DNA of 64,000 nucleotides from an uncultured Desulfocapsaceae bacterium. GTDB lineage: Bacteria; Desulfobacterota; Desulfobulbia; Desulfobulbales; Desulfocapsaceae. The notes under the pieces were generated by a model. That model was given only the letters and a program-made list of their open reading frames with translations. It ran no database searches and had not been told where the DNA came from. The position numbers and the translations under genes were made by a program. The DNA lies in NCBI GenBank assembly GCA_964558875.1, contig CAZLGM010000001.1:5447-69446 (forward strand). Direction: 5' to 3'. Of the stretch, positions 27,388 to 45,508 are shown one piece after another; positions within the stretch are counted from its first letter, which is position 1, and every line of letters begins with the position of its first letter.

Positions 27388-27444
27388 CAGGGCATGGGTC
27401 AGGGTCGGGCCGCCGTTATCGGCCAGCGGCCGCAGATATGGGTT

Positions 27445-30400
27445 TTAGCCGACGATATTGCCGAGCCCGTCTCCGCTGGTGGCACTGTCGGCGACACCAT
27501 GCCCATTGAGGGTACTGATCAGCGAATGATCGGCGCTGATCTGGCGTAAAGGATCGGCGCTGGAGGCGTCATAGAGATCTTCACTGGTTTCATCAATGGA
27601 AATGTTTGCCCCGATGATGGTGGAGCTGATCCGGCTGGTGCCGTTGTCCGCCAGGACACTGGAATGAATCCCGCCGCCGTGCTGCTTTGATGTATTGTTG
27701 GTGATGGTTGTATTGGTAATCGAGCTGGTCGCTCCGCTGCTGTTGACAGTGACACCCACGCCACCACCGTGTGCGGCGGTTGTTTCATTGCCTGAGATGG
27801 TAGAATTAGTGATTGATATCGTTGCCGTTTCATTGACGTTTACGGAGATACCGCCGCCGGAGCCTTTCGATTCATTTGCCGAAAGTGTTGAGCCGGCAAC
27901 AGAAAAGCTACTGGTATCATAGGCCCTGGAGAATACGCCTCCACCGGCACCATCAGCGATGTTATCCGAAACGGTGGAGCTTAAAAGAGTGGTAACATCA
28001 TCACCATGGGTCCGCACATAGACACCGCCGCCTTTTCCGTTGGCAGCCTCGTTATCGGATATGGTTGAGTTGTCTATCGTGCTACTCCCTCTCCACGAGT
28101 AGAGAAAGAGGCCGCCGCCGTCACCACCGGCTGAATTATCAGAGATGGTTGAGTTGGAGATTGTTAGTTTCCCATCCACCTGCCGGATATAGACACCACC
28201 GCCGTCAAGTGTCTGTGCCTCATTATCGGTGACGGTTATATTTGAAACGGTCGCTTCGGCTGAACTGCCGAGAATCTTAATCCCGAGTCCGCCGCCGTTA
28301 TTGCCGGCTCTGTTTCGGTAGACGCTGGAGTTGTCGATGGTGATGGTGCCGGAATGATCGGATCGGACATAGCCGCCGCCGAAATTCCAGTTTGCCTCAT
28401 TACGGCTGATGGTGGTATCGGAGATGGTGATTGTTCCCAGATCGCTTCTTATATAGAGCCCTCCCACTGAGCCGGCTTCATTCAAATCAAAGGTTGAGTT
28501 GGAGATGGTGGTGGTGCCGCTTCCATTTGTGATATGGGCCCCGCCGCCGACAGCTCCTCCGCTTAGTGTATTACCCACAAAATCAGTATCGCTGATAGTG
28601 GTTGCACCGTCAGGGGTCTGAACATAGAGCCCGCCTCCATGACTGGATGAGGTGTTGTAGGAGATGGTGGAGTTGCTGATGGTAACATCGACAGAGTTGC
28701 TGTTTTTAATGAGAATCCCGCCGCCATACAGGGAGTAATGAAAGCTGAAACCGGAATTGATGTTTTTTGTGATGGTGGAATTGGTAATGGTCAGGTTTTC
28801 ACGGCTGTAGATAGCCCCGCCACCGAAATAGCCGTTGCCGGATCCGCCGCCACCATAATAATAATAAGCATTGCCGTTCTGCAGAGTCAGACCGGAGAGG
28901 GTGACATTCTGATTAACACTGTCATCACCGCCGGCCGATGTGTCGTCGATATTGAATATCCGGCTGCCGGTCCCGGCTGTGCCGGTATAACCGCCGTCTA
29001 TGGTGATCCTGCCATCACCGTTGATGGTCAGATCATGGGCTATTTCAAATTGACCTCCCCAGGGAGCCGTGGTTGCATCGTATTGGGTCATGTTTATGGT
29101 GCTGCCGGAAACAAGACTGGAGGCAAAATTGATGGTGTCGGCGATATATGGTGATTTGGCCAGCTCAATGGCTTCCCTGAGTGAGAGATCACCAGTACTG
29201 TAGTCGGTGTCGAATTCATCAACCAGATAATCGACTTCCAGACTCAACACTGGATTCTGATCTTCATAGGCACCAATATCAACACCAGCACCGTCATCAC
29301 GGTTAAACCCTGCGCCCCGCTGATCAAATTGACCGGCAGGCGCTGCATGGAAGCCGTTATTTAATGCCGGACTGCCGGCCAGCAGCGCGTGGGTCCAGGT
29401 GGGACCGCCATTGTCGGCCAGGTCATCCAGCAGCGGATCAACATCGATAATGTTGCCCGTACCGGTATCGATGGTGAAGCCACTGTTTGTTTCAATCAAC
29501 GAGTAATCGACATTGAGTGTTCCGCCTGTTTTAAAAATATCATCGTCATTTCCTCCTCCGCTGTTATTGCCGACAATGGTGGAGCTGATTGTTGTGGTTG
29601 TCCCACTATCAGCACGTATAAAAACGCCGCCACCGTCATCATAAGTAGCCTTGTTGCCGGAGATGGTCGAATTGTTGACGCTGGTAGTGCTATACCGAGT
29701 ATAAACGCCGCCACCTCGATCCCGGGCTGTGTTTCCGGAGATGGTGGAATTGTTGATGGTGGTGTCCCCATAAGAAGCACTAACGCCGCCGCCTCTATTC
29801 CAAGTCGTGTTTCCGGAGATCGTCGAATTGTTAATGGTGGTTGTGCTGTTCCAAGCACCTAGGCCGCCACCCAGCCCAGCCGTGTTTCCGGAGATGGTGG
29901 AATTGTTGATGATGGTGGTGCCCCTGCCGGCATAAACGCCGCCGCCGCTCCAAGCCGTGTTGCCGGAAATGGTGGAATTGTTGATGGTGGTGGTGCCCCA
30001 ACCGGCATAAATGCCGCCGCCGTTCCAAATAGTAGCCGTGCTGCCTGAGATAGTCGTATTATTGATGGTCAGGTTCTCACGACTGAAAATTGCGCCTCCG
30101 GTATGTTCTACTGAACTATCACTGTTGCCTTTCTGCAGGGTCAGGTCGTTGAGAGTTATATCGAGATTGGTGGTATCATCACTATCGTTGATATTGAATA
30201 TTCTGGTGCCGCTACCGAAATTACCTGTAACATAGCCGCCATCAATGATGATCCTCCCTTCGCCGTTGATGGTCAGCGAATCTGTAATCAGCAACTCTGT
30301 ACCGGCCAGGCTGATCGTTGAGATGGTGTCTGCAAAGGTGATGACATCGGCTCCGGGATTCGCGTTAGCCAGCTTAATGGCTTCCCGTAATGTAAGGTTC

Positions 30401-31392
30401 CCCGCACTGTAATTACCATCATCCGTATCACCCGGGTTATCAACCTTATAATCGGCCAACAGTGAAATGGTCCGGGTGCTGCTGAAATCGAGTCTGGACG
30501 CAACAGTGCCGTTGCCATATTCCAGCTCCCAGTCGCCGCCGGTTTCGGTTGAGCCGGTATCATCAGTCGATGCGGCCACATCGGCTTGGGTGAGTTTGGC
30601 TAAGCGGTTGACAAAGGCTTTGCCGGAATCACTCTCGGCTATCTTGCAGCCGTAGAGATTTATATCACCATCTTCAGATAGAGCACTTGTCCAGCCCTGG
30701 ATCAGTTCCTCGTTCTTTTCAAGAGAGGCGGAATCCACCACATCGGAACCCAGAACAAAATGACCGTCACCGCCATGGGAGAAAACATGAACAGCGCCAA
30801 TATCTTCCCGTCCTTCCAGGGTTTCACTGATCAGATCAAGGCCGGAGTCGGTGGATTGAACCACAATCACTTCAATCTCTTCCTCTTCCAACGTCTCGAT
30901 GATCGCTTCCTTATCAGAAAGTGAGCCTGAAACAAAGGCGATCTCGTTTCTCTCTTCCTCTTCCCTGTCGCCACCACTCAACTGTTCATCATCGGATGAC
31001 GAATCTGACTCGGATGATTCGGTTTCTGCTGCAGAGTCCTGTTCGTCAGCCTGATCGGTTGATTCGTCAGAGCTGCTTTGCTCACTGTTTTCGTTTGATT
31101 CGGTGGTGTTGTCCGATGAATTATTGCTGTCTTGTGCGGCCTGATCAGATCCAGAGGAATTGTCAGAAGATGAAGGGGTCCTGTTCCCTTCTTGGGGTGT
31201 GTTTTCCGGTTCGGAGGCGGGATCGGGTTCGGAGCTGGAGTTTTGCTTGTCTGTTTCTTTCTGCTGTTCAGCTATCGGTTCAGACTCAACAGGTGTTTTG
31301 TCACCATCAGTGGTGGTATCTCCTGTGGTATCGCTTTCGCCGGGACCGGCGGCGTCAAACAGGATTCGGTCTTCCAGTGCGTATATAGCCAT
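27445..31392 (-). CDS. giant protein B, N-terminal portion (leader, acidic low-complexity tract, DUF4347-like domain, 2 beta-helix modules), ending at an in-frame TAA
   Basis: It starts MAIYALEDRILFDAAGPG with GGAGG 7 nt upstream. A Ser/Asp/Glu-rich tract of about 150 aa follows. The DUF4347-like block reads VHVFSHGGDGHFVLG...INLYGCKIAESDSGKAFVNRLAKLTQADVAAS...GGDWELEY. It ends ...GDGLGNIVG-TAA in the middle of the module tail motif. Confidence 0.9.
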   Translation of the reverse strand: MAIYALEDRILFDAAGPGESDTTGDTTTDGDKTPVESEPIAEQQKETDKQNSSSEPDPASEPENTPQEGNRTPSSSDNSSGSDQAAQDSNNSSDNTTESNENSEQSSSDESTDQADEQDSAAETESSESDSSSDDEQLSGGDREEEERNEIAFVSGSLSDKEAIIETLEEEEIEVIVVQSTDSGLDLISETLEGREDIGAVHVFSHGGDGHFVLGSDVVDSASLEKNEELIQGWTSALSEDGDINLYGCKIAESDSGKAFVNRLAKLTQADVAASTDDTGSTETGGDWELEYGNGTVASRLDFSSTRTISLLADYKVDNPGDTDDGNYSAGNLTLREAIKLANANPGADVITFADTISTISLAGTELLITDSLTINGEGRIIIDGGYVTGNFGSGTRIFNINDSDDTTNLDITLNDLTLQKGNSDSSVEHTGGAIFSRENLTINNTTISGSTATIWNGGGIYAGWGTTTINNSTISGNTAWSGGGVYAGRGTTIINNSTISGNTAGLGGGLGAWNSTTTINNSTISGNTTWNRGGGVSASYGDTTINNSTISGNTARDRGGGVYTRYSTTSVNNSTISGNKATYDDGGGVFIRADSGTTTTISSTIVGNNSGGGNDDDIFKTGGTLNVDYSLIETNSGFTIDTGTGNIIDVDPLLDDLADNGGPTWTHALLAGSPALNNGFHAAPAGQFDQRGAGFNRDDGAGVDIGAYEDQNPVLSLEVDYLVDEFDTDYSTGDLSLREAIELAKSPYIADTINFASSLVSGSTINMTQYDATTAPWGGQFEIAHDLTINGDGRITIDGGYTGTAGTGSRIFNIDDTSAGGDDSVNQNVTLSGLTLQNGNAYYYYGGGGSGNGYFGGGAIYSRENLTITNSTITKNINSGFSFHYSLYGGGILIKNSNSVDVTISNSTISYNTSSSHGGGLYVQTPDGATTISDTDFVGNTLSGGAVGGGAHITNGSGTTTISNSTFDLNEAGSVGGLYIRSDLGTITISDTTISRNEANWNFGGGYVRSDHSGTITIDNSSVYRNRAGNNGGGLGIKILGSSAEATVSNITVTDNEAQTLDGGGVYIRQVDGKLTISNSTISDNSAGGDGGGLFLYSWRGSSTIDNSTISDNEAANGKGGGVYVRTHGDDVTTLLSSTVSDNIADGAGGGVFSRAYDTSSFSVAGSTLSANESKGSGGGISVNVNETATISITNSTISGNETTAAHGGGVGVTVNSSGATSSITNTTITNNTSKQHGGGIHSSVLADNGTSRISSTIIGANISIDETSEDLYDASSADPLRQISADHSLISTLNGHGVADSATSGDGLGNIVG

Positions 31393-31524
31393 TACAAACC
31401 TCCAGCGAGTTAACTCCTGATTTGATCGGCTAACTGCTCCTATATGTTGGTACCTACAGTGATTACAGCCCCTTAAATAAAACTACCGGAAGTGATGCTG
31501 CATGTCAAACGCGTTGTTTCGGTT

Positions 31525-34500
31525 TCAACCCAATATCCCACCCAACAGCTTATCAACCTCAGACTCAAAAGCGGGATGCTTCTTCAACCGTTGGTTGATG
31601 CCCTGGTACCAGTCCAGATCAGCCCGGCCATCGATACTGATCAGGGTTTCACCGGTATCAGATGTATGCTGAACATTCGATCCATCGCCGAGCAAGAGTC
31701 CCATTTCCAGTAAAATGGGCTCAAAGAGCGGATCATGTTCGAAGATGGGGATCAGCTCCTCTAGCCAGAAGAGTCGGGTTTCACCGTAGCGTACTTCAAG
31801 GTCAGCCAGGAAATCCATAAGCACATTGGCGCTGCCGGCGTAATATGCCTCCAGTTCGATAAAGAACGACGGCCATGAGCTATACTCTTTTCCGATAAAG
31901 TCGATAAATTGTTCGCCGTCACTGTAAACGAAGGCGAGCCGCAAAAGTTCGGTCGGAGGGAGTTCCTCCCCGTCTGCGGGAACCGGATCAACCGCAGGAG
32001 CAGGGGGGGTGGGGTCATAACCATTGCCGGTCGGATCCTCAAAGGCACCCATATCGATACCGGAACCGTCATCTCTTGCCTCACCCCGCTGATCGGTAGT
32101 TAAACCGTCGGGATTGGAACCGGAGTTGAGCGCCGGGCTGCCGACATACAACAAGTGCGTTTGGGTGGGACCACCGTTGTTAGCCAGGGGACCGAGCCTG
32201 GGATCAAGGCCGACGATGTTGCCAAGACCGTCGCCGCTGGCAGAACTGTCGGGGATTGCATGACCGGTGTCATCAGACTCGATCAGAGAATGATCAACAT
32301 TCAGGGTACCGCCGGCTTCGTGAAAAAGATCGTTTCCTTCGATGGCGGCTGTATTGTCGCCTATGATGGTGGAGACGATATCCGTCGTTCCATATTTGCT
32401 TAGAAAGACGCCACCGCCATTGCCATAGATACCGGTTGTATTATTGGCTATGGTTGAATTCTTGATAGTGGTTGTTCCGTAAGAGACCTCAATGCCGCCG
32501 CCGCCACCATAGGTGAGCCAGTTACCGGAAATAGTGGAGTTTTGAATGGTGAGGGTTCCTCTGGTGGTAATGCCTCCACCACCCTCTTCAGCACTATTAC
32601 CGGAGATAGTGGAATCCGTTATTGTCGCTGTCCCGGAATAAGAATTACTGATACCGCCGCCGTTTTCTTCTATTGACTGGTTGCCGGAGATGGTGGAACC
32701 GTCCACTGTGAGCGTTCCATAACTATTATTAATACCACCACCGTTATATCTGGCAGAGTTATCCGAAATCGTCGAGTTGTTGATGGTGGTCATGCCACTG
32801 GTATTAATACCACCACCAGATTCGTTGGCATCGTTTTCCGAGATGGTTGACTCGCTGATGGTCAGTGTTCCACTGTTGTGGATACCGCCGCCGGCGTTGT
32901 ACTCAGCGGAATTATTACTGATGGTCGACTGGCTGATGATAGCTGTCCCGGAATAAGAATTACTGATGCCGCCGCCGTAATACTTGGCTTTATTTCCCGA
33001 GACGGTTGAGTTGGTGACGGTAACTGTTCCGGAGTTGAAAATACCGCCGCCGTCACCATAGGCGTAACTGGCCGAGACGGTAGAACCGGAGATGGTCAGG
33101 TTTTCCCTGTTGATTACGGCGCCCCCGTTTGCCCATGAAGCATAGCCGTTCTGCATGGTCAATCCGGCCAGGGTGACGGCTCTTTGAACATCCGGATCTC
33201 CGTCATCGACATTGAATATCCGGTTATTGTCACCGCCATCAATGGTGATCCGGTTATCGCCGTTAATGATAATACCACGATTTATGGTGAACTCACCGTT
33301 GGCAGGATCAATGTTAATTGTGCCGGTGTCGCCGATAAAGTTTTTGGGCCCGGGAAGACCGGGGACAGCATCCGGAAGATCATTTAGATCATCGGCAAAG
33401 ACGATTTTGTCGCCATACTCGGCAAAACCAATGGCTTCGCGCAGGGAAAGATCACCGACACCGTAATCGGTATCATTCTCATCCACCAGGTTGTCTACAA
33501 CATAGGCGGTCCCTTCAAAGGCGCCCATATCGGCCTGTCCATCCCTGACTCTGTCGTAGTTCGGCCCCCGCTGATCAAATGGAAGCCCGTCAGGATTGGA
33601 GCCTTTGTCGATGGCCGGACTGCTGGAGAGCAGAGCGTGGGTCTGGGTGGGGCCGCCGTTATCGGCCAGTTCATCAAGCTTGGCCTCTTGGTCTAAGATA
33701 TTATCATTGTCTATAGGTCCCCCGGGTGGAGTCGTGTTGTCAACCTGGTGTCCGGCCGACGTTTGGATCAATGAAAACTCGGCATTGATGTTGCCAGCCA
33801 CATCCCAGAGGTCATCAAAATTTACAGCAGAGCTGTTCTGACCGATAATCGTGGAACGGAGTGTGGTTGTTCCTGCTAATGAGTAAGTAACTGCTCCTCC
33901 ACCCTGGCCTGTTGCCGAGTTATCAGCAATGGTTGAATTTGCTATGGTGGTTGTCGCGCTTCCACCAAATGTCATGGCTACCAGACCACCGCCATGGGCA
34001 AAATAAGCGGGGTGGGTGTTATCTGAGATGGTGGAGTTATTTGAGATAGTGGAGTTGGAAATAGTAACTGTACCGTTCCAGTTATAACTATAGAGACCAC
34101 CGCCAAAAGCAGAATCACCGCTGGTGGAGTTGCCTGAGATGGTGGAGTTCTCAATACTGATTGTGCCGTAACCGGTATAGATTATCGCACCGCCGCCGTG
34201 GGCGTCATCTCCGGCAGTGGAGTTGCCTGAGATAGTTGAGGTTTGAATACCAACTTGACCGCGATTGCTAAAGATCATCCCACCACCACCGTGACTGTCT
34301 TCTCCACCGGTGGAGTTATTCGAGATGGTGGAGTCTTCGATGGTGGTAGTACCTGATGAACTGTAAGCCCAGACACCGCCGCCGCTGGCGTCATCTCCGG
34401 CAGTGGAGTTGTTTGAAATTGTGGAGTTACTGATTGTTGTTGTGCCGGAGTCGGTAGAGATGTACAGACCGCCGCCGTCAGCGTTCTTTCCGCCAGTTGA

Positions 34501-35049
34501 ATTATCCGAGATCATGGAGTTTTCAATGCTCAGAGTACCTCTCTCAGTCATCATCCAGACACCGCCACCCTCTGCACTATCTCCAGCAGTGGAGTTATCC
34601 GAGATGGTGGAGTCTTCAATGGTGGTGGTACCTGACGAGTGATAGATCCAGATACCGCCGCCTCGGGCATCTTCTCCTTCTGTGGTGTTGCCCGAGACAG
34701 TGGAGTTCTCAATGGTGAAAGTGCCGGAATAGAGAGAACTGTTTAAGCCGCCGCCGTCTGCTGCCACCCCGCCGGTGGAGTTATTGGAGATAGTTGAGTC
34801 ACTGACTGTGGTTGTTCCGGAGCCGACAAAGGTATAGACCCCGCCGCCGTGAGCTTCATATCCCTCTGTTGAATTGCCTGAAACGGTAGAGTTCAGCAGA
34901 ACGATTGTGCCGGAATCTGTTGAACCATACAGTCCGCCGCCATAACCATAATCTGCCGTTGTCCGGTTAGCTGAAATGGTGGAGTTCTCAATCCTGAGGG
35001 TACCGTCGAGATTTCTGGAATAGAGACCGCCGCCTCGGTCGGTAGCCAT
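31525..35049 (-). CDS. giant protein A, portion downstream of the in-frame TAG (rest of module 5, one more module, unique C-terminal domain)
   Basis: A 1,174-aa ORF. It has beta-helix repeats (NSTISNNSTAGDDA.GGG), one LSLREAI module, and a C-terminal domain homologous to that of protein B. The frame is continuous with ORF 35131-43320 across the TAG. Confidence 0.9.
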   Translation of the reverse strand: MATDRGGGLYSRNLDGTLRIENSTISANRTTADYGYGGGLYGSTDSGTIVLLNSTVSGNSTEGYEAHGGGVYTFVGSGTTTVSDSTISNNSTGGVAADGGGLNSSLYSGTFTIENSTVSGNTTEGEDARGGGIWIYHSSGTTTIEDSTISDNSTAGDSAEGGGVWMMTERGTLSIENSMISDNSTGGKNADGGGLYISTDSGTTTISNSTISNNSTAGDDASGGGVWAYSSSGTTTIEDSTISNNSTGGEDSHGGGGMIFSNRGQVGIQTSTISGNSTAGDDAHGGGAIIYTGYGTISIENSTISGNSTSGDSAFGGGLYSYNWNGTVTISNSTISNNSTISDNTHPAYFAHGGGLVAMTFGGSATTTIANSTIADNSATGQGGGAVTYSLAGTTTLRSTIIGQNSSAVNFDDLWDVAGNINAEFSLIQTSAGHQVDNTTPPGGPIDNDNILDQEAKLDELADNGGPTQTHALLSSSPAIDKGSNPDGLPFDQRGPNYDRVRDGQADMGAFEGTAYVVDNLVDENDTDYGVGDLSLREAIGFAEYGDKIVFADDLNDLPDAVPGLPGPKNFIGDTGTINIDPANGEFTINRGIIINGDNRITIDGGDNNRIFNVDDGDPDVQRAVTLAGLTMQNGYASWANGGAVINRENLTISGSTVSASYAYGDGGGIFNSGTVTVTNSTVSGNKAKYYGGGISNSYSGTAIISQSTISNNSAEYNAGGGIHNSGTLTISESTISENDANESGGGINTSGMTTINNSTISDNSARYNGGGINNSYGTLTVDGSTISGNQSIEENGGGISNSYSGTATITDSTISGNSAEEGGGGITTRGTLTIQNSTISGNWLTYGGGGGIEVSYGTTTIKNSTIANNTTGIYGNGGGVFLSKYGTTDIVSTIIGDNTAAIEGNDLFHEAGGTLNVDHSLIESDDTGHAIPDSSASGDGLGNIVGLDPRLGPLANNGGPTQTHLLYVGSPALNSGSNPDGLTTDQRGEARDDGSGIDMGAFEDPTGNGYDPTPPAPAVDPVPADGEELPPTELLRLAFVYSDGEQFIDFIGKEYSSWPSFFIELEAYYAGSANVLMDFLADLEVRYGETRLFWLEELIPIFEHDPLFEPILLEMGLLLGDGSNVQHTSDTGETLISIDGRADLDWYQGINQRLKKHPAFESEVDKLLGGILG

Positions 35050-35130
35050 ACTGGTGGTGATTGTACTGTCGATCAGGTGCAGGTTCTCGCGGCTTAAAAC
35101 AGCGCCGCCGTCGCCTGCAGCATTGCCATT

Positions 35131-38100
35131 CTACATCCTCAAGCCGCTTAACCGCACATCCGAATTAAAACTGTTGTCACTGTCATCGATATTGAAAATC
35201 CGGCTGCCGCTGCCAGGGTCGACACCGTCATAGCCGCCGTCAATGGTTATTCGTCCCTCGCCTTCAATGATCAGATGTCCTGTAATGGCCAATTCACCCA
35301 GGGTCAAATTGATGGTGCCGGTATCGCCGATAAAGTTCTTGCCGCCGGGAGCCCCATCAGGCGCATCGTTGAGATCATCGGCAAACATGATTTTATCACC
35401 GGCCATGGCCTGGCCGATGGCTTCACGCAGGGAGAAATCACCATGACCGTGATCGCCTTCATTGGCGGCTTCATCCACCAGGTTATCAACAATCCAGGCA
35501 GTCCCCTCAAAGGCGCCCATGTCGGTCTGCACCCCCTGGGTTCGCTGATAGTTCGGTCCCCGTTGGTCAAAGCCAAGCCCGCTGGGATTTGAGCCGCTGT
35601 TGCTGGCCGGGCTGCCTGCAAGCAGAGCATGGGTCAAGGTAGGTCCGCCGTTATCGGCCAGTACGTCGAGCAAGGGATCCTGACCGATGATGTTATTGCG
35701 GTCAAAATCACCGCTGCCTGTGGACGGATCGTTATCCACCTGATGACCATCCGCTGTCTGGATTAACGAGTATTCGACGCTTAAGGGATTGCCGGCCCCC
35801 AAGTCGGCAAGATCATTGCCCGTTCCGGTTGCAGAGTTGTTGCCGATAATGGTGGATTTGATCGAGGTTGCGGAACCTTCCCCATCAAGAGCAGCGCCGC
35901 CGCCGTCACTGTCGGCTCCTGTGGTAGAGTTGTGGGCAATGGTGGAGTTTTCGATACTGGTTATGCCGTCATCATATGTACGGGCATACAGACCACCGCC
36001 ATGGGCAGAGTCTCCGGCTGTGGAGTTGCCGGAGATTGTGGCGTTGGATACTTTGGCAACTCCTCCATAATTGTTCATCCATATACCACCACCACTGGCC
36101 TTGTCTCCACCAGTAGAATTACCCGAAACGGTAGCGTTTTCAACAGTGAGAGTGCCGCTACCCACAACCGCCGTCAGACCGCCGCCAAAACTATAATTGC
36201 CAGTGGTCGTGTTATCCGCGATAGTTGTGTTTGAAATGGTGGCAATACCATCAGCAGATATAACAAGAGCGCCACCCCCGGCAGCATAGCTTCCGGCGGT
36301 GGAGTTGTTTGAAATTGTCGAATTGTTGATACTGACTATGTTGTCATCAGTAAAAGCTATCAGGCCGCCACCGTGAGCATAATCCCCTGTTGTGGAATTA
36401 TCCGATATGGTCGAGTTGTCGATTGTAACTGTGCCAACGTCGGAATACACCATCAGGCCGCCGCCGAAACTGTAGACATCCGCCGTGGAATTACCGGTGA
36501 TGGTGGCGTTTGAGACTGTTGTCCTGCCGTAGTAGCTCTCGATGTAGAGACCGCCGCCATGAGCATAAAGACCGCCCGTGGAGTTGTCTGAGACGGTGAG
36601 GTCTGAAATCGAAATGGTGCCGTGATATGATGCAACAAAGACACCGCCACCGTAACCATAATCACCAGCAGTTGAGTTGTTTGAGATGGTGGAATTTTTA
36701 ATGGTGATGGTGCCGTATTCCGTCCCCAGGGACAGACCGCCGCCGGTGGCTTCATAACCAGCAGTTGAGTTATTGCTGATGGTGGAGTTTTCGATGGTGA
36801 TGTTGCCATAGATGGTGTAGGCGCTTACACCGCCGCCGTAAGCCTGGTCTCCGGTGGTTCTGTTGCCTGTGATGGTACAGTCAGAGATAGTCAGACTCTC
36901 CTTGCTGTAGATTGCCCCGCCGGGTCCGGCAGCAACACCATTCTGTAGTGTCATGCCGGCCAGATGGACGTCGATATCCGGGGTACCGGGTGCGGAGTTG
37001 CCGTCGTCAATCAGGAAGATCCGGCTGCTCCAGCGAGCGTCGATACCGATTCGGCCATCACCGTCAATGATGAGATTCTTATCAATCTCAAATTGGCCCA
37101 GAGCGTTATCCATATTGATGGTGCCGGTGTTGCCAATCCAGTTTTTACCGCCGGGCGCACCATCATCCGCATTATTGAGATTGCCTGCAAAGATGATCTT
37201 ATCACCATAGTCAGCATTAAAGATGGCCTCGCGCAGGGTGTAGTCACCGACGCCATAATCACCATCCAGTTCATCCACCAGAGAGTCGACCACATGGGTA
37301 CGAAAATATTCAATGGCGCCGATATCGGCCTGGCCGTCCTTCTCCCGCTGATAGTTGGGTCCGCGCTGATCGTACTGGAGCGTATTTGGGTTGGCGCCGG
37401 CGTTGTAGGCAAGGCTGCCGGCCAAAAGGGCGTGGGTCAAGGTGGGACCGCCATTATCGGCCAGCGAATCAAGCATGAAGTCTTCATCGATAATATTGTT
37501 CTGGTCCGTACCGCCGGTACCAGTTCCCTGGTTATTATCGACCAGGTGACCATCCATTGTTTTAATCAGTGAATATTCGACGTTAAAAACACCGCCTGCT
37601 TCCAGGAGATCATTGCCCAAAATACCTGCCCGGTTGTTAGCAATGATGGTTGAAATCATGTCGGTTGTGCCGCCGGATGTGGTGACAAACAGACCGCCGC
37701 CATAATAGCCGCCAACGTTTTCGGCAATGGTTGAGTTGGCAATTTCAGCACTACCCGAACTGGTGTTCAGATAGACGCCGCCGCCGAAATAGTCTGCTCT
37801 ATTGCCCGAGATGGTTGAGTTGCTGATAGCAGTTGTTCCGCTAAGAATATGGGTGCCTGGAGGTGGGCCGCCAGGAGGTGTGGGGCTGGCAGCAGTTATC
37901 GCAAAAACACCGCCGCCTTGTGCGAAGGCTGTGTTCTCCGAGAGAGTGGATTGATAGATTGTTGTCGTGCCTGCGAGGGCCCTTGAAAAAATCCCGCCTC
38001 CGGAATAACCAGCATGATTTCCGGAGATCGTTGTGCGGTTGATATCAACTATACTGCCCTGGTTCAATAAACCAGGTTCAGAGGCCTCGTTATAGACAAA

Positions 38101-41100
38101 TAGTCCACCGCCGTAAGAGCCTGCCCTGTTATCTGAAATTGTGGAGTTGTTGATGGTGACTATGGAGTAATCATCACCTTTGGCAAAGCTGTTCAGGAAG
38201 ACACCACCGCCATCGCCTGCGGCCCTGTTTTCAGAGATGGTGGAGTTTTCGATGGTGAGTATGCCGATGCCGTATTCGCTGGAAGAGCTGGCAGCCCTGG
38301 CCCAAACACCGCCGCCATGAGAGTCATCTCCCGCTGTTGAGTTACCGGTAATTATGGAGTTGGAAATCGTCGTGGCTGCGCCGTCGCTGGTTCTAAGATA
38401 CATGCCGCCGCCATGAGAGTCATCTCCCGCTGTTGAATTGCCGGTAATCGTAGAGTTGGCAATGGTGATCTCCAGGATACCGCCGGGGTAGCTCTGGAAA
38501 GCCTTGGAGAAAAGACCACCGCCGTGAGAAGAATTTCCTTCTGTTGAATTGTCCGAAATGGTGGTATGTGAAATTGTGGTTGTACTGTCCCTGCGGGTCC
38601 AGGCAAATAGATCGCCACCGTAACCAGCGTTTTTAGTAGTGGTGTTGCCACTGATTAAGGAATTGGAGATCTCAAGTTCACTGCCTTTCCATGTCCTGGT
38701 GTATAGACCACCACCATGGCCACCCGATCCGGTTGTTTCGTTTCCTGAAACAGTCGAACTGGTAATCTTTGTTGTACTGTATTCGGAAGTAACAATACAT
38801 AGACCTCCACCGTAGGCATTCATTCCTGCTGTGTCATTTGTCGAAAAGGTCGAATTGGAAATTATAGCTTTACTGTTATCGGTCTCAATGAATAGCCCGC
38901 CGCCATGGGCAATGTCTCCCATGGTGTAATTACCGGAGAAGGTGGAGTTGGAAATAAAGGCATAACTGCTGTTGTCTGCAGTGATAAATACGCCGCCGCC
39001 GTAAGAGCTAGTTCCCCTGGTGGAATTACCCGAGATGATGGAGTTGGAAATGTCTATGGTCCCACCCACATCGGTGGAGAGGGCTAAACCGCCGCCAACA
39101 CCAGTAAATGTCGCTGTGCTGTTTTTAGAGATTGTGGAGCCCAGGATTTCAATGGTGCCGTCCTCATTGTCAGAAAAGATGCCGCCACCGGATAGTGCCG
39201 TACTGCCGGTGATTGTACAGTTGACAACCTTAAGTGACTCTGTGGAGAAAATAGCGCCACCGACATCACCTGCTGCATTACCGTTCTGCAGGGTCAGACC
39301 GGAGAGGGTGACCTCGAGGAGAGGGCCAGGACCCGGATCATTGATATTAAAAATCCGAACACCGGTACCGGGATCAGCGCCATCATAGCCGCCGTCAATG
39401 GTGATCCGGCCGTCGCCGTCAATGGATAGGTTTTGATCGATTTTAAACTCGCCGTCAGCATGGATCATACCAATGGTGCCGGATGTCGGCCAAGGCCCAC
39501 CAGACAGATCATTCAATTGATCGGCAAAGGTGATCAATTCGCCTTCTTGAGCCCGGTCTATCGCTTCCCTGAGGGAGTAATCGCCCCAGCTGTAATCGGT
39601 GTCTTTTTCATCTACCAGGGTGTCGACAGCATGGAAATACTCAATTGCCCCCATATCGATGGTTCCCTGCACCCTGGCAAAACCGTCTCCTCGCTGATCG
39701 TTAATCAGGCCCCAGGGATTTGCGCCACCATTAATGGCCGGACTGTCATTGCCAAGGGCATGGGTCAGTGTCGGGCCGCCGTTGTCGGCCAGGGGCCCAA
39801 GCTGCGGATCGTAACCGACAATGTTGCCGCTCACACCGTTGGCAACCGTATGATCGCCACCACCTTGTGTTTCAATCAGCGTATGGAAAACGATGAAGAA
39901 GCCGCCACCAGGTTGACGCAAAAGATCATGACCGATGGAGCCGGTGCCCTGAACACTGTTGTCGCCGATAATGGTGGAACTAATAATCATAAACCCACCG
40001 TGAGTGTCGGCGTAGACACCACCACCATCAGCATTATTTCCAGAAGTGTCGTTCCCTGAGATGGTGGAGTTTTCGATTAGGGTGGTACCGCTGGCATAAG
40101 TCAAGGTGTATATACCGCCGCCGTCAGCATCAACTCCGGAGGTTTTATTTCCGGAGATGGTGCTGTAGGTAATTTCCGTGGTGCCGCCTCCGGTCTTCGG
40201 CCAGGCACCGCCGGCGTCGGCATTATGTGCAGAGGTTTTATTTCCGGAGATGGTGCTGTAGGTAATTTCCGTGGTGCCACTGCCAAAAGTCCAGGCGTAT
40301 AAGCCGCCGCCGGAGTTATTATCTCCGGAGGTAGAGTTTCCTGAGATGGTGCTGTTGGCAATTTTGATGTTACCGGTACCGCTGGTCCGGGCGTGTACGC
40401 CGCCGCCGTCAGCATTATTTCCAGAGGTTTTGTTTCCCGAGATGGTGGAGTAATTAATTTCAGTATCAGCGGTGCCAGAAGTCAAAGCGAATACAGCGCC
40501 ACCGTAACTCCCTGCACTATTGCCGGAAATGGTCGAGTTTGAGATGGTTAAATGATCTGTGCCTTCAATCCTGGAAAAAACAGCGCCGCCCGCCGCTGCT
40601 CCTGAATGCCCATTCTGCAGAGTCAAGCCATTGATCGTGATCGCGCTGTCGTTATCTGCGGAGTCAATATAAAAAATGCGGCTGCCGCTGCCGGGAACAA
40701 ATTCATCATAGCCGCCATCAAGGGTAATATTTCCAGCCCCGTCAATAAATAAGTCATCGGTGATCCCAAACTGACCCATATCCATATCGATGGTGCCACT
40801 ATTGCCGATAAAATTCTTGCCGCCGGGAGCCCCATCGGCAGCATCGTTGAGATCATCGGCAAACCAGATATTGTCAACGCGGGCATCCGAATTGGCAAGA
40901 GTAATGGCTTCGCGAAGAGAAAAATCACCCGGTGTGTAGTCAGTGTCCAGCTCATCTACCAGGCTGTCGACAACCAGGATGGGGGATTGATCCTCATAAG
41001 CGCCCATATCGACACCAGCCACATTTCTGTCATATCCTGCACCCCGTTGGTCGAATTCACCGGCAGGTGAAGGATGGAAACCATTATTCAAAGCAGCAGA

Positions 41101-43314
41101 GCCTATCCCCAGCGCGTGGGTCATGGTGGGTCCGCCATTGTAAGTCAGGGGCTGGAGCTGTGGATCAACACCAACTATATTGCCAAGGCCATCGCCACTG
41201 TCAACGCTGTTTTCGACCGTATGGCCGCCGGGTGCCTCGATCAGAGAGTGGTCGACATTCAGGGTTCCTCCCCATCCGCTTTTAAACAGATCATTATCAT
41301 CCCCGCTTCCCTTGTTGTTGGCAAGGATACTGCTACTTATCGTTGTTGAGCCACCACCATCCGAATATACACGAACACCGCCTCCCAACCCGTCAGCGTT
41401 GTTATCGGAAATAGTGGAGTTATTGATCGAGGTATTACCTGCGAAATCGTTGGTCCGAATGCCGCCGCCATCAGAAGCGCTATTGCCGGAGAATGTGGAG
41501 TTGTTGATTTCGACTGTGGGCGTTTCGGCGTTATTGGTCCAGTTGTGGAAATAAACCCCGCCTCCGGATGAAAATGCCGAATTCGCATAAAAGGTCGAGC
41601 TGCTGATCCTGGTTATGCCGGAATAATTTGTAGTGGCATTGATGCCACCGCCTTTATCAGTAGTTGCAGTGTTTCCGGAAAAGGTTGAGTCAGTGATTTC
41701 GGTGGTGCCGGAGGAAACAGTAGAGGAAACAATACCACCGCCGGCAACAGCAGTATTGTCGGAGAATGTCGAATTGCTGATAAGGGTCGTGCCGCCGGAT
41801 GTATAGGTGTCAAGGGCCCCACCTGTCAAAGTAGCAGTATTGTTTGTGAAAGTTGTATCGTTGATTGTGTTGGTAATACCGGGCATCGCTGATATGGATG
41901 CACCACCACCCCGGTTGGCGGAATTGTTGTCAAATGTTGTATTGTTGATGGTAACTGTTTTCCAGGAACTGGAATAAAGACCACCGCCGGAACCGGAAGT
42001 CGTATTGTTTTGAATGGTTGAGTTGGTAATTGTCAGGTTTTCCTTGCTGAGAATCGCCCCGCCATGAATGCCTATTCCGGGACTGCCATCGGCATTTCCA
42101 TTCTGCAGGGTCAAGCCGGAAAGGCTGACGTTTATATTTGAAGAATTCCAATCATCAATAAAGAAAATCCGGTCGCTACCACCGCCATCCAGAATAATAT
42201 TACCAGCGCCATTGATGGTTAAATCATCCTGGATCCACATCGCTACACCCACATTAATGGTTTCTCCATCGAGGGAACTGTGAAAGGTGATGGAATCTGC
42301 CCCAGGTAGTGCATTGGCATCGAGAATCGCCTGTCTGAGTGATCCTGCACCGCTGTCAGCTTTAGTGGTAACTTCAAAATTGGCTAAAGCCGAAACGGTT
42401 TGGATGGAACCAAGATTCAGACTTTTATGGACCATCCCACTGGCATACTCAAGCTCCCAGTCACCGCCCGTATCGGTCGAGCCTGTATTATCAACCGAAG
42501 CGGCCACATCGGCCTGAGTGAGCCTGGCCAGTTTATCAACAAACGTTTTGCCGGTATCACTCTCGGCAATCTTACAGCCGTAGAGATTGATATCACCATC
42601 TTCAGCAAGGGCTTTGCTCCAGCCCTGAACAAGTTCTTTATTTTTCTCAAGAGAGGTCGAATCCACCACATCGGTTCCAAGGACAAAATGGCCGTCGCCA
42701 CCGTGGGAAAAAACATGAACAGCATCAACCTCTTCACGGTCTTCCAGGGTCTCGCTGATCAGTTCCAGACCGGAGTCGGTTGATTTGACCACAACAACTT
42801 CAACCTCTTCCTCTTCCAACGCCTCGATGATCGCTTCTTTATCGGTCAGCGAGTCGGAGACAAAAGCGATCTGATTTTTCTGTTCCTCTTGTTCACTTTC
42901 GCTGGTCAGTTGTTCATCTTTTGATTGGGAATCTGAGTCTGATGGCTCAGTCTCAGCGGTTGAACTATGTTCGTCAGTAGTCTCACCGGATTCTTCAGAA
43001 TCGCTTTGAGGGTCTTCGTTGGTCGAATCGTTATCTGTATCAGAAGTGCTGCTACCGGTTTCGGCAGATTTGAGTGAGGATGAGTCTTTGGAAGAAGTGT
43101 CTTTTTTGTCTTCATCGGACGTGTCTTCCGATGAGGAGGCGGGTTTGGATTCGCCGGCAGCGTCATGCTGTTCTGTTTCTTTCTGTTTCTCAGGTATCGG
43201 CTCCGACTCAACGGGAGTTTGTTCGGCATCTGGAGTTGTGTCTCCTGATGTGTCGTTGTCGCCGGGACCGGCAGCATCAAACAGGATTCTATCTTCCAAT
43301 GCATAGATAGCCAT
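35131..43314 (-). CDS. giant protein A, N-terminal portion (leader, acidic tract, DUF4347-like domain, about 5 beta-helix modules), ending at an in-frame TAG
   Basis: The second ATG (43314) gives MAIYALEDRILFDAAGPG, identical to protein B, with AGGAGG 6 nt upstream. It has the same domain order as B. It ends ...DVRLSGLRM-TAG where sister modules read L(T/R/I)LQNG. Confidence 0.9.
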   Translation of the reverse strand: MAIYALEDRILFDAAGPGDNDTSGDTTPDAEQTPVESEPIPEKQKETEQHDAAGESKPASSSEDTSDEDKKDTSSKDSSSLKSAETGSSTSDTDNDSTNEDPQSDSEESGETTDEHSSTAETEPSDSDSQSKDEQLTSESEQEEQKNQIAFVSDSLTDKEAIIEALEEEEVEVVVVKSTDSGLELISETLEDREEVDAVHVFSHGGDGHFVLGTDVVDSTSLEKNKELVQGWSKALAEDGDINLYGCKIAESDTGKTFVDKLARLTQADVAASVDNTGSTDTGGDWELEYASGMVHKSLNLGSIQTVSALANFEVTTKADSGAGSLRQAILDANALPGADSITFHSSLDGETINVGVAMWIQDDLTINGAGNIILDGGGSDRIFFIDDWNSSNINVSLSGLTLQNGNADGSPGIGIHGGAILSKENLTITNSTIQNNTTSGSGGGLYSSSWKTVTINNTTFDNNSANRGGGASISAMPGITNTINDTTFTNNTATLTGGALDTYTSGGTTLISNSTFSDNTAVAGGGIVSSTVSSGTTEITDSTFSGNTATTDKGGGINATTNYSGITRISSSTFYANSAFSSGGGVYFHNWTNNAETPTVEINNSTFSGNSASDGGGIRTNDFAGNTSINNSTISDNNADGLGGGVRVYSDGGGSTTISSSILANNKGSGDDNDLFKSGWGGTLNVDHSLIEAPGGHTVENSVDSGDGLGNIVGVDPQLQPLTYNGGPTMTHALGIGSAALNNGFHPSPAGEFDQRGAGYDRNVAGVDMGAYEDQSPILVVDSLVDELDTDYTPGDFSLREAITLANSDARVDNIWFADDLNDAADGAPGGKNFIGNSGTIDMDMGQFGITDDLFIDGAGNITLDGGYDEFVPGSGSRIFYIDSADNDSAITINGLTLQNGHSGAAAGGAVFSRIEGTDHLTISNSTISGNSAGSYGGAVFALTSGTADTEINYSTISGNKTSGNNADGGGVHARTSGTGNIKIANSTISGNSTSGDNNSGGGLYAWTFGSGTTEITYSTISGNKTSAHNADAGGAWPKTGGGTTEITYSTISGNKTSGVDADGGGIYTLTYASGTTLIENSTISGNDTSGNNADGGGVYADTHGGFMIISSTIIGDNSVQGTGSIGHDLLRQPGGGFFIVFHTLIETQGGGDHTVANGVSGNIVGYDPQLGPLADNGGPTLTHALGNDSPAINGGANPWGLINDQRGDGFARVQGTIDMGAIEYFHAVDTLVDEKDTDYSWGDYSLREAIDRAQEGELITFADQLNDLSGGPWPTSGTIGMIHADGEFKIDQNLSIDGDGRITIDGGYDGADPGTGVRIFNINDPGPGPLLEVTLSGLTLQNGNAAGDVGGAIFSTESLKVVNCTITGSTALSGGGIFSDNEDGTIEILGSTISKNSTATFTGVGGGLALSTDVGGTIDISNSIISGNSTRGTSSYGGGVFITADNSSYAFISNSTFSGNYTMGDIAHGGGLFIETDNSKAIISNSTFSTNDTAGMNAYGGGLCIVTSEYSTTKITSSTVSGNETTGSGGHGGGLYTRTWKGSELEISNSLISGNTTTKNAGYGGDLFAWTRRDSTTTISHTTISDNSTEGNSSHGGGLFSKAFQSYPGGILEITIANSTITGNSTAGDDSHGGGMYLRTSDGAATTISNSIITGNSTAGDDSHGGGVWARAASSSSEYGIGILTIENSTISENRAAGDGGGVFLNSFAKGDDYSIVTINNSTISDNRAGSYGGGLFVYNEASEPGLLNQGSIVDINRTTISGNHAGYSGGGIFSRALAGTTTIYQSTLSENTAFAQGGGVFAITAASPTPPGGPPPGTHILSGTTAISNSTISGNRADYFGGGVYLNTSSGSAEIANSTIAENVGGYYGGGLFVTTSGGTTDMISTIIANNRAGILGNDLLEAGGVFNVEYSLIKTMDGHLVDNNQGTGTGGTDQNNIIDEDFMLDSLADNGGPTLTHALLAGSLAYNAGANPNTLQYDQRGPNYQREKDGQADIGAIEYFRTHVVDSLVDELDGDYGVGDYTLREAIFNADYGDKIIFAGNLNNADDGAPGGKNWIGNTGTINMDNALGQFEIDKNLIIDGDGRIGIDARWSSRIFLIDDGNSAPGTPDIDVHLAGMTLQNGVAAGPGGAIYSKESLTISDCTITGNRTTGDQAYGGGVSAYTIYGNITIENSTISNNSTAGYEATGGGLSLGTEYGTITIKNSTISNNSTAGDYGYGGGVFVASYHGTISISDLTVSDNSTGGLYAHGGGLYIESYYGRTTVSNATITGNSTADVYSFGGGLMVYSDVGTVTIDNSTISDNSTTGDYAHGGGLIAFTDDNIVSINNSTISNNSTAGSYAAGGGALVISADGIATISNTTIADNTTTGNYSFGGGLTAVVGSGTLTVENATVSGNSTGGDKASGGGIWMNNYGGVAKVSNATISGNSTAGDSAHGGGLYARTYDDGITSIENSTIAHNSTTGADSDGGGAALDGEGSATSIKSTIIGNNSATGTGNDLADLGAGNPLSVEYSLIQTADGHQVDNDPSTGSGDFDRNNIIGQDPLLDVLADNGGPTLTHALLAGSPASNSGSNPSGLGFDQRGPNYQRTQGVQTDMGAFEGTAWIVDNLVDEAANEGDHGHGDFSLREAIGQAMAGDKIMFADDLNDAPDGAPGGKNFIGDTGTINLTLGELAITGHLIIEGEGRITIDGGYDGVDPGSGSRIFNIDDSDNSFNSDVRLSGLRM

Positions 43315-43704
43315 AACCATCCTCCTGAAAGCAAACCTGGAGTTCTTTATTAGCGGATTTTCAGCCCTACTATTTAAAACGAGGTGTAACTGCTACTCCG
43401 TCCTAATGCCCTGTAATGACAGCCAGACATACCTGCAGTCAATGTACAACAAACCGTCTGTAAATGCGAGGAATACAACGAAAAAACAGTTTCAGATGAT
43501 CCTACTGTAGATCTGATTCCATCATGGAGACAGCAATGATCTGTGTTGCTAGGTGGGCGGCGCGGCAATCCACAGGATCATTGCGCTCGTTTAGCTTCCT
43601 CGCGACGACTTAATACCTTTCTGACATTGCTGGGAGTAACACGACGAAGCAGGTTAACCAACACTCCAATCTCCTTAAATAAATGCTTCGGTGAAAGAAA
43701 ATGG

Positions 43705-43770
43705 AGATCGCCACCGCCGTTATCTCTTCCTCGCGATAACAGAGTTGCTTTTTTGTCATAACGAGAGTCT
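43705..43770 (+). repeat. degenerate copy of the dispersed intergenic repeat family
   Basis: GAGATCGCCACCGCCG...CTTCCTCGCGATAAC...GTCATAACGAGAG resembles the GAGATCGCC(A/G)CGGTCGC...CCCTCGCGA(C/T)GAC...TTGCGAG consensus. A further fragment lies at about 43560-43610. Confidence 0.35.
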
Positions 43771-43852
43771 TCCCCGGCAACACAAACAATTGCTGCTGTT
43801 TTCGGTCTCGCAATGATGAAAGGTACTTATTTACAATAACAACAATCACCCA

Positions 43853-45508
43853 TTACTCATTATCCAGGCGGATGAAAGAGGCTGCTACGCTGGCCTGCCC
43901 CACACTGCTTTCGGTGCCGGGGGCTGAAGGATGATTAAGCTCAACATCTACGGTTTCTGCAGCAGTTTCTGTTGTTTCATCCAGATGAATCCCCAGAAGG
44001 CTGTCGTCCTCTACATCATCTAGATTGTCTTCGGCATCGGATTTGGTAATCGGCTCCGGTTCTGGTGGAGAAACTTGTTGTTCACGTTCAAAATTTCTTT
44101 TGCCTATGGCATTAAGCAGCCGATGGTAAGCAAGATAGTAATTGGCAAGTGAGGTGGTGCGCCCAATAGCCGCATCCGCAGTTTCCATCTTTGCCCTTCG
44201 GCTTTGTAGAGGGTTGATCGAGCCACCGTCTTTTTCATGTTGTTCTGTTGTTGACTGGTACTCTTTCTGGGTTAAGTATATTTGATTGCTGATCTCATAT
44301 CGCCGCTTTACCTCCTGGAGGTTGGCATGAGCGATGCGAACTTCGGCGAGAATACCGATAGAAAGAGCCACGCTCTGCAACTCTGTCTTTTCCTGTTCCA
44401 GTTTGTCGCCCCGATACTCGAAATATCGGCCGGGAATATTCAACAGGTCAAATGCTGCCTTGACACCGACCTGCCACCAGCTCTGGTTGTATAAATATAC
44501 ATTGGATGAGTCCGTGAAGTCGGCAAAGAGCTTGACGTTGGGAAACATCTTAAGAAGCGCCTTTTTGGCTTCCACATGGGCAATATGCCCTTTGACGTCC
44601 AACTCACTCAACTCCGGGCGATATTCAAGGGCCAGTTGCTCCAGCTCTTCAATAGGCGGGACGGTTGTTTCATTGAGTTTATCCAGAAAGCTGGTATCAA
44701 CTTCTATATTGCCGACGGGATAGTAGCCGAGCAGAGCACTGAGGTGGATTTTGGAATTTTCATAATTACGGCGGTAATCTGTTAATTTCCGTTTGAGTTT
44801 GAGAAAAACGATTTTTTCTCTCAACATTTTCAGCGGCGAAAAGAAACCCTTTTCCGAGGCACCCTTTAAGGCCGTTTCGGTCTCCTTGCTGAGATCAATC
44901 ATTGCTTCGGTATCTTTCATGGCATATTGAGCTGCCGCCACTTTCAGATACGCTTTGACCACATCGAGAGTCAGATTCTGAGCGGCTCGATTCTGCTGCA
45001 ACCTGACGATAACACCTTTATCCTTATGTTGTATGGAGCTGTAATAGGAAAGGCCGAAATCGAGAAACGAAAAGAGCAGTTTAAATTGAAACTGGGACTC
45101 GTTAACTTCACTGGAGCGGCTGGGTTCCAGACTTTCTTCCCCTGACTCAATGGATATGGAAGTTGAGCCGGGATCATTATCTCTGGTAGAATAGCCGCCG
45201 CTCAGATCCATGGACGGCAGCATGCCCAGCATGGCGGCTGTTGCCTGTTCTTCGGCAATGGCTTTCTGCAGATCTTTGACCCGGATATCGAGATTATTTT
45301 CCAGGGCAAGCTCAATAGCTTTCAGCAGGGTCAGAGGAGGTGTGCCGGTATAGACCTGCTTCTTGATGGTCTCATAATGATCCTTGGCATTGTCGATCCT
45401 GAGCTGCCTGTAATCCGGCTGACTGGCGCAGGACGAGATCAGGATAAAGATAAATAAAGCCGTTCCGCACTTCATAACAGAAGTTTTCCAAAGGGATCGA
45501 TATGCCAT
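43853..45508 (-). CDS. TolC-family outer-membrane channel (OEP) lipoprotein with an acidic C-terminal extension of about 70 aa
   Basis: The lipobox is FILISSCAS. Two OEP repeats carry typical heptad helices (LTLLKAIELALENNLDIRV..., LEQLALEYRPELSELDV...). The tail is rich in D/E/T (PEPEPITKSDAEDNLDDVEDD...). Confidence 0.85.
   Translation of the reverse strand: MAYRSLWKTSVMKCGTALFIFILISSCASQPDYRQLRIDNAKDHYETIKKQVYTGTPPLTLLKAIELALENNLDIRVKDLQKAIAEEQATAAMLGMLPSMDLSGGYSTRDNDPGSTSISIESGEESLEPSRSSEVNESQFQFKLLFSFLDFGLSYYSSIQHKDKGVIVRLQQNRAAQNLTLDVVKAYLKVAAAQYAMKDTEAMIDLSKETETALKGASEKGFFSPLKMLREKIVFLKLKRKLTDYRRNYENSKIHLSALLGYYPVGNIEVDTSFLDKLNETTVPPIEELEQLALEYRPELSELDVKGHIAHVEAKKALLKMFPNVKLFADFTDSSNVYLYNQSWWQVGVKAAFDLLNIPGRYFEYRGDKLEQEKTELQSVALSIGILAEVRIAHANLQEVKRRYEISNQIYLTQKEYQSTTEQHEKDGGSINPLQSRRAKMETADAAIGRTTSLANYYLAYHRLLNAIGKRNFEREQQVSPPEPEPITKSDAEDNLDDVEDDSLLGIHLDETTETAAETVDVELNHPSAPGTESSVGQASVAASFIRLDNE

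Follow-up and report, generated by a model that had tools for sequence, protein, structure and literature searches.

The locus described here is a gene cluster on the minus strand of a 64,000-nucleotide stretch of DNA from an uncultured Desulfocapsaceae bacterium (assembly GCA_964558875.1, contig CAZLGM010000001.1, positions 5,447 to 69,446 of the forward strand); the whole stretch is termed the window, and its own coordinates are used throughout. At the core of the cluster is a tandem pair of giant paralogous genes with the same N- and C-terminal domains: gene A (31525-43320) and gene B (15634-31392; 5,252 codons including an internal TAA). Along the minus strand, on which all of them are coded, the order of the cluster is: a gene for a TolC-like outer-membrane efflux protein (OEP; 43853-45508), directly upstream of gene A; gene A; gene B; two HlyD/RND-adaptor-like genes of a putative export apparatus (13942-14805 and 12535-13917), directly downstream of gene B; and a gene for an M50-type metalloprotease fused to a HlyD-like region (M50-HlyD). 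The reading frame of gene A is interrupted by a TAG nonsense codon, and linked to this lesion are two further ones: a TAA in the paralogue B and a 1-nt insertion that splits the export gene M50-HlyD.

On the strength of their domain matches the proteins coded by A and B are members of the DUF4347/CSLREA/choice-of-anchor-Q class. For gene A these matches are to DUF4347 (PF14252, E = 1.3e-46), PF13229 (E = 3.4e-27) and NF041518 (E = 1.1e-23), and homologues of its modules bear the source names CSLREA or choice-of-anchor Q proteins. In both A and B a module is made up of a CSLREA-like head, right-handed β-helix repeats and a choice-of-anchor-Q tail. The part of gene A upstream of the TAG (35134-43320, minus strand; 2,729 codons from the ATG at 43320) codes for an N-terminal MAIYALEDRILFDAA, an acidic linker, the DUF4347 domain, four complete modules and the head of a fifth. 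The downstream part (31525-35130, minus strand; 1,201 open codons and a TGA) supplies the β-helix and choice-of-anchor-Q regions of the fifth module, a complete sixth module and a unique C-terminal domain of 138 amino acids (aa). This domain, of the form FIDFxGKxYSSWP ... DWYQGINxRLKxHPAFESxVDKLLGGILG, lies at 31528-31941 in A and at 15637-16050 in B (both minus strand), and has no Pfam or NCBIfam match. Genuine starts in the pair follow a Shine-Dalgarno sequence, AGGAGG in gene A and GGAGG in gene B. The start of gene A is probably the ATG at 43314 (MAIYALEDRILFDAA) rather than that at 43320, because the former lies 6 nt past the AGGAGG and matches the start of gene B, whereas the latter abuts the Shine-Dalgarno sequence.

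Translated as one frame from 43320 to 31525, gene A runs to 3,931 codons, with one stop inside it, the TAG at 35131-35133 (minus strand), and no second lesion. The stop-to-stop open reading frames (ORFs) to its two sides are 35131-43392, ending with this TAG, and 31525-35130, ending with the TGA at 31525-31527; the TAG is in frame both with the 2,729-codon ORF upstream (35134-43320) and with the 1,201 open codons downstream. The minus strand around it reads GGC TTG AGG ATG TAG AAT GGC AAT GCT GCA GGC GAC GGC GGC GCT GTT TTA AGC CGC GAG AAC CTG, and the translation across the stop is ...DVRLSGLRM*NGNAAGDGGAVLSRENL... The TAG occupies the place of the Gln in an L-x-L-Q-N-G motif that opens the β-helix of a module. 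At the same position Gln is found in 14 of the 16 further modules of the two genes (12 CAG and 2 CAA), the remaining two having Thr and Lys; the four recognised modules of a relative, contig L010 (introduced below), have Q, Q, E and I. The site of the stop is a sense codon in all these sister modules, and CAG differs from TAG by one transition (C-to-T on the coding strand). The stop interrupts the module after its CSLREA-like head, at the first β-helix motif, where there is no domain boundary, and no homopolymer tract is present at this site. The original prediction, made from the sequence, had placed this TAG in frame with the downstream ORF, at the conserved Gln of the L-x-L-Q-N-G motif, and had derived it from a single CAG-to-TAG change: the single-frame translation bears out the first of these, the 14 Gln residues among 16 sister modules the second, and their 12 CAG codons the third.

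The TAG is not an assembly error, since the same codon is present in independent pipelines and samples. Assemblies of the same population were fetched by exact-protein look-up (JGI 3300007510 and 3300007511; ENA SAMN10231893, SAMN10231913 and SAMN10231914; Logan SRR8062321; contigs L003-L009) and span three pipelines (JGI, ENA and Logan) and several biosamples. All of those fetched have the same TAG in A and the same TAA in B, and both genes are free of further stops and frameshifts. Their contigs are 99.5-99.95% identical to the window, with the differences, including those of repeat number, confined to three repeat patches: the Logan SRR8062321 contig has a 96-nt (32-codon) deletion of a repeat unit in gene A (window ~38367-38405); and L004-L006 have swapped repeat units in codons 1031-1054 of A and 457-499 of B, the part of B upstream of its stop being also longer by 26 codons. 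One protein (P0131) is a variant of the downstream part of A that is 93 aa shorter. All these variants of repeat number and repeat unit are in frame. When 15 billion proteins are clustered at 90% identity, the cluster that holds the upstream fragment of A has members of 2,729, 2,729 and 2,695 aa and none longer. Gene callers report a downstream ORF of 1,174 aa in all assemblies. The flanks of the stop are unique; at 85% identity or more there is just one internal duplicate, well away from the stop at 20219-21922. No intact (CAG) allele of gene A is on record among the population assemblies or in this protein cluster: the original prediction had raised the prospect of data that restore CAG, and the TAG was kept in every assembly.

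Scanning genome contigs with the C-terminal domain recovered one relative, L010 (contig CAZMFP010000005, from an uncultured Desulfocapsaceae bacterium), and two scans of metagenome contigs recovered nothing. An exhaustive HMMER search of 1.84 billion representative proteins (E <= 0.001) gave eight matches, three of which cover the full C-terminal domain: those from the two genes of the window and P0121, from the L010 relative. A word-indexed protein search with the C-terminal profile returned P0121 only and missed the long proteins of the window itself. Such searches returned only proteins below 650 aa and missed the window's own proteins of 1,174 and 3,917 aa, though these are in the collection, and therefore the lack of long homologues in them is no evidence of absence. 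Likewise, a protein search with 369 aa spanning the stop found distant single-module proteins (30-46% identity, <650 aa), which are uninformative on orthologues. Across the searched genome contigs, metagenome contigs and proteins there was no orthologue of gene A, the only relative being L010, which is itself frameshifted. The giant gene of L010 is taken as an orthologue of B on the basis of its C-terminus and of synteny; it is open for at least 3,309 codons before a frameshift at GNIV|GQDP (L010 9831-9929), 240 codons from its end, which detaches the same C-terminal domain. This frameshift is identical in the GTDB metagenome-assembled genome and in two Logan assemblies (L011 and L012). It falls in the same motif as the TAA of gene B.

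The nonsense codon of gene B is a TAA at 27445-27447 (minus strand), where the translation reads ...GDGLGNIVG*NPYLRPLADNGG... Its place, directly after the GNIVG of a choice-of-anchor-Q motif, is a variable one: the residues found after GNIVG are V, Y, E, Q, Q and L in the modules of A, and V, the stop, I, Q, V, D, V, V, D, V and A in those of B. As read from these translations, Gln stands here in only 3 of the 16 sister modules, and the codon from which the TAA arose could equally have been GAA, TAY, TTA, AAA or TCA. That there is exactly one nonsense codon in each giant gene, as the original prediction held, is confirmed by translating both. The stop of gene B is, however, a TAA and not a TAG; the prediction had placed both stops at Gln positions, which is true of A, with its conserved Gln, and not of B. 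The AAY codon that follows both stops and had been counted as part of a striking parallel is in each case merely the conserved Asn or Asp of its own motif. At the level of sequence the parallel reduces to two different stop codons at two non-equivalent sites in different motifs, only that of A at a conserved Gln, and the caveat entered with the prediction, that coincidence is plausible, stands. Gene B also has an internal duplication of 660 nt (21263-21922 against 20219-20878), whose copies are 96.5% identical, with 15 synonymous and 6 non-synonymous differences. The copies agree throughout codons 39-173, and of their 23 differences the majority fall at the 5' edge, a pattern that suggests recent gene conversion between modules.

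The third lesion is in the M50-HlyD fusion gene (10268-12347), which is split by a 1-nt insertion at ~11475-11490 into two overlapping ORFs in different frames: an M50-type metalloprotease ORF of 290 aa (11475-12347, minus strand) at the front and a HlyD-like ORF of 390 aa (10268-11440, minus strand) at the rear. The window reads CTT TTA AAT AAA CGG TAA against the CTT TTA ATA AAC GGT AAT implied by the L010 protein. In L010 the gene is single and intact with 692 aa, whereas the 290 + 390 split is seen in all the population assemblies. The T TTA AAT at the lesion resembles a -1 slippery heptamer, and we considered a programmed frameshift; this was rejected by inspection, the downstream frame requiring a +1 shift. 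Of the other export genes, a 460-aa HlyD-like protein of L010 is 83% identical to its counterpart in the window.

Taken together, these observations make it quite likely that an ordinary nonsense mutation of recent date put the stop into gene A, and that this giant-adhesin and export locus is on the way to losing its function. On this account a C-to-T transition would have changed a conserved Gln codon, the CAG of one module, to a TAG now fixed in the population. The protein would be truncated after 2,729 residues, with loss of the last 1,201, including the conserved C-terminal domain. Three independent and different lesions in one functional cluster, namely the TAG in A, the TAA in B and the 1-nt insertion in M50-HlyD, would then point to a giant surface-protein and export locus on which selection has lately been relaxed, or has favoured loss, in a nearly clonal population. 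The most economical account of such linked lesions is the usual pattern by which a dispensable or counter-selected surface structure is lost; the truncated products are most likely non-functional and the locus decaying. The C-terminal domain appears to have mattered to the protein, because it has been under purifying selection: between A and B, which are old duplicates (synonymous divergence, dS, >1.2), the ratio of non-synonymous to synonymous rates (dN/dS) comes to 0.12-0.14 both across the last 400 codons and for the domain itself; for the 330 codons at the N-terminus it is 0.21.

Several observations weigh against this account. There is no further stop or frameshift in the downstream 1,201 codons of A and 3,936 of B. 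The two halves of M50-HlyD have dN/dS values of 0.09 and 0.11 against L010, like the 0.10-0.12 of the intact HlyD genes. Among the assemblies the number of substitutions in the downstream parts (3.6 kb in A, 11.8 kb in B) is zero, so that there is no signal in the ratio of non-synonymous to synonymous polymorphism (pN/pS). Beyond the three lesions there is no positive sign of decay, which fits very recent lesions and downstream parts that are still in use equally well. By length alone, three lesions inside a cluster that makes up ~55% of the window have p ~0.17, which is not significant; the argument for decay is made because the lesions are functionally linked and diverse in type, and not on account of this value. 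The selection estimates indicate that the lesions are young relative to the split from L010 (dS ~0.7-1.0), with selection acting until recently, and this youth would also explain why the downstream ORFs are still flawless.

The alternative that survives best, though still an unlikely one, is that the truncation or split is tolerated or even adaptive: the 2,729-aa product of A and the 1,315-aa product of B would still be made and useful, as shorter surface proteins, or with the downstream part of A made by termination-reinitiation at the ATG at 35049, the stops thus being a shortening and not knockouts. The perfectly open downstream ORFs accord with this, as do the 1,174-aa ORF called in all assemblies and the in-frame variants of repeat number on both sides of the stop, which imply that changes of length are tolerated. 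Against it, the stop falls within a module instead of between domains, the C-terminal domain that had been kept by purifying selection is missing from the truncated product, and an export gene of the same cluster is broken too. Nor do the signals for a restart appear to be in place. The ATG at 35049, 82 nt past the TAG, is the only ATG, GTG or TTG in frame within 120 codons of it, and, unlike the true starts of the giant genes, it has no Shine-Dalgarno sequence (the preceding sequence is AGTACAATCACCACCAGT); the start candidates within 120 codons after the TAA of gene B all lack one as well. A consensus scan of 26500-44000 found nothing suggestive of function: 20 promoter-like sites against 18.0 +/- 4.3 in shuffles, and 27 terminator-like sites against 15.6 +/- 4.3, with a weak terminator-like match at 35122-35103, 9 nt past the TAG, lying within the coding motif AAGDGGAVLS.

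Considerably less probable is recoding, in which a suppressor tRNA, the pyrrolysine machinery or a near-cognate tRNA-Gln would read through the stop and yield full-length A, constitutively or conditionally. The frame is open for 1,201 codons past the stop, each giant gene has one stop and both stops are followed by the base A; when UAG is read by a near-cognate tRNA, the residue inserted tends to be Gln, and in gene A this would restore the ancestral state. Yet sister modules have a plain Gln at this place, the TAA of gene B cannot be read by pyrrolysine or a CUA-anticodon suppressor, and the frameshift in M50-HlyD is beyond the reach of any stop suppression. TAG is not avoided as an ordinary terminator in the window: among ~25 credible genes the normal terminators are TAG in 5, TAA in ~11 and TGA in ~9. 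One of the genes with TAG is that for SucD (54221-55090), which ends at its canonical C-terminus, residues 3-288 aligning with 2-286 of the 288-aa E. coli SucD. The original prediction had proposed a search for a suppressor tRNA: ARAGORN found neither a suppressor nor any other tRNA within the 64,000 nt, and there was no match to an Rfam element in the window. The 120 nt past the two stops fold like their shuffles (z = +0.36 and -0.79) and like three intact sister modules, so that there is no sign of a stimulatory RNA structure. A recoding mechanism shared by A and B is thus not supported, in view of the different stops, the normal use of TAG, the frameshifts in the export gene and in the giant gene of L010, and the lack in the window of tRNA, restart or structural signals.

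It is similarly improbable that the stops in A and B and the frameshift in L010 together represent a tolerated or selected throttling or splitting of the expression of costly giant proteins, with a trickle of full-length A made by readthrough with tRNA-Gln; what keeps this idea in play is the flawless state of the downstream ORFs. A sequencing or assembly artefact, with CAG as the true codon, has a negligible chance: giant repeat-rich genes are hard to assemble and their repeat patches do differ between assemblies, but the identical TAG is found, in unique flanking sequence, in six contigs or more; these come from the JGI, ENA and Logan pipelines and from several biosamples, and some of them are variants with differences at other places.

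With recent loss of function as the preferred account, the annotation should treat 35131-43320 and 31525-35049 as a single interrupted gene and not as separate proteins; likewise, 27445-31392 should be joined with 15634-27387, and 11475-12347 with 10268-11440. The locus would be a clean example, and a very young one, of how a cluster for giant surface proteins and export is shut down in a nearly clonal natural population; beyond annotation its importance is small. Were readthrough true, the locus would become an instance of bacteria reading through stop codons in giant genes; nothing here points to it. The cluster is flanked by two genes of other kinds: one (8829-10235, plus strand) codes for a bactofilin domain fused via a Lys-rich linker to an ATPase of the AAA_22/PEP-CTERM-associated type, and the other (45721-47196, minus strand) for a DUF4915/TIGR03032 protein with C-terminal TPR repeats.

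Searches of the literature on DUF4347 and on giant genes with in-frame stops found nothing specific; pseudogenised members of paralogous β-helix surface-protein families are, however, already well described. Three kinds of known system invite comparison. The first is pyrrolysine (UAG) decoding in methylamine methyltransferase genes, which likewise have an in-frame TAG in an otherwise intact ORF. In that system orthologues share the TAG, and pylT and pylS are present in the genome; here, in contrast, there is Gln in the sister modules, TAG often serves as a terminator, the stop of the partner gene is a TAA and the protein family is unrelated. The second is the loss of large adhesin genes by a point lesion, such as that of yadA, a pseudogene in Yersinia pestis (PMC2999546; for bacterial pseudogenes in general see the review PMC11078800). 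As in the present locus, one disabling mutation strikes a large surface gene, the rest of the ORF stays intact and linked genes are struck too; unlike in such cases, gene A has no intact orthologue in the searched collections with which it can be compared.

The third is the polymorphic membrane proteins (Pmp) of chlamydiae, whose PmpG group combines duplicated genes with phase variation and with pseudogenes that arose by frameshift and nonsense mutations (PMC6740158). Both are tandem, repeat-rich paralogues of the right-handed β-helix type, with copies broken by single nonsense or frameshift lesions that are fixed in a lineage, and homologues of the window's modules carry the Pmp repeat PF02415. 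An identity of A and B as chlamydial-type Pmp autotransporters was nonetheless rejected: neither the 500-aa module segment past the TAG nor the C-terminal 300 aa matches PF02415, PF07548 or PF03797 at E <= 0.01, the match of the 500-aa segment being to PF13229. The proteins of the window differ from Pmp in having no autotransporter domain and no Pmp middle domain, in being 4 to 5 times longer and in possessing an N-terminal DUF4347 and the unique C-terminal domain. Unlike in Pmp, nothing at the lesion, which has no homopolymer tract, suggests phase variation, and the host is a free-living relative of Desulfocapsaceae and not an intracellular pathogen.

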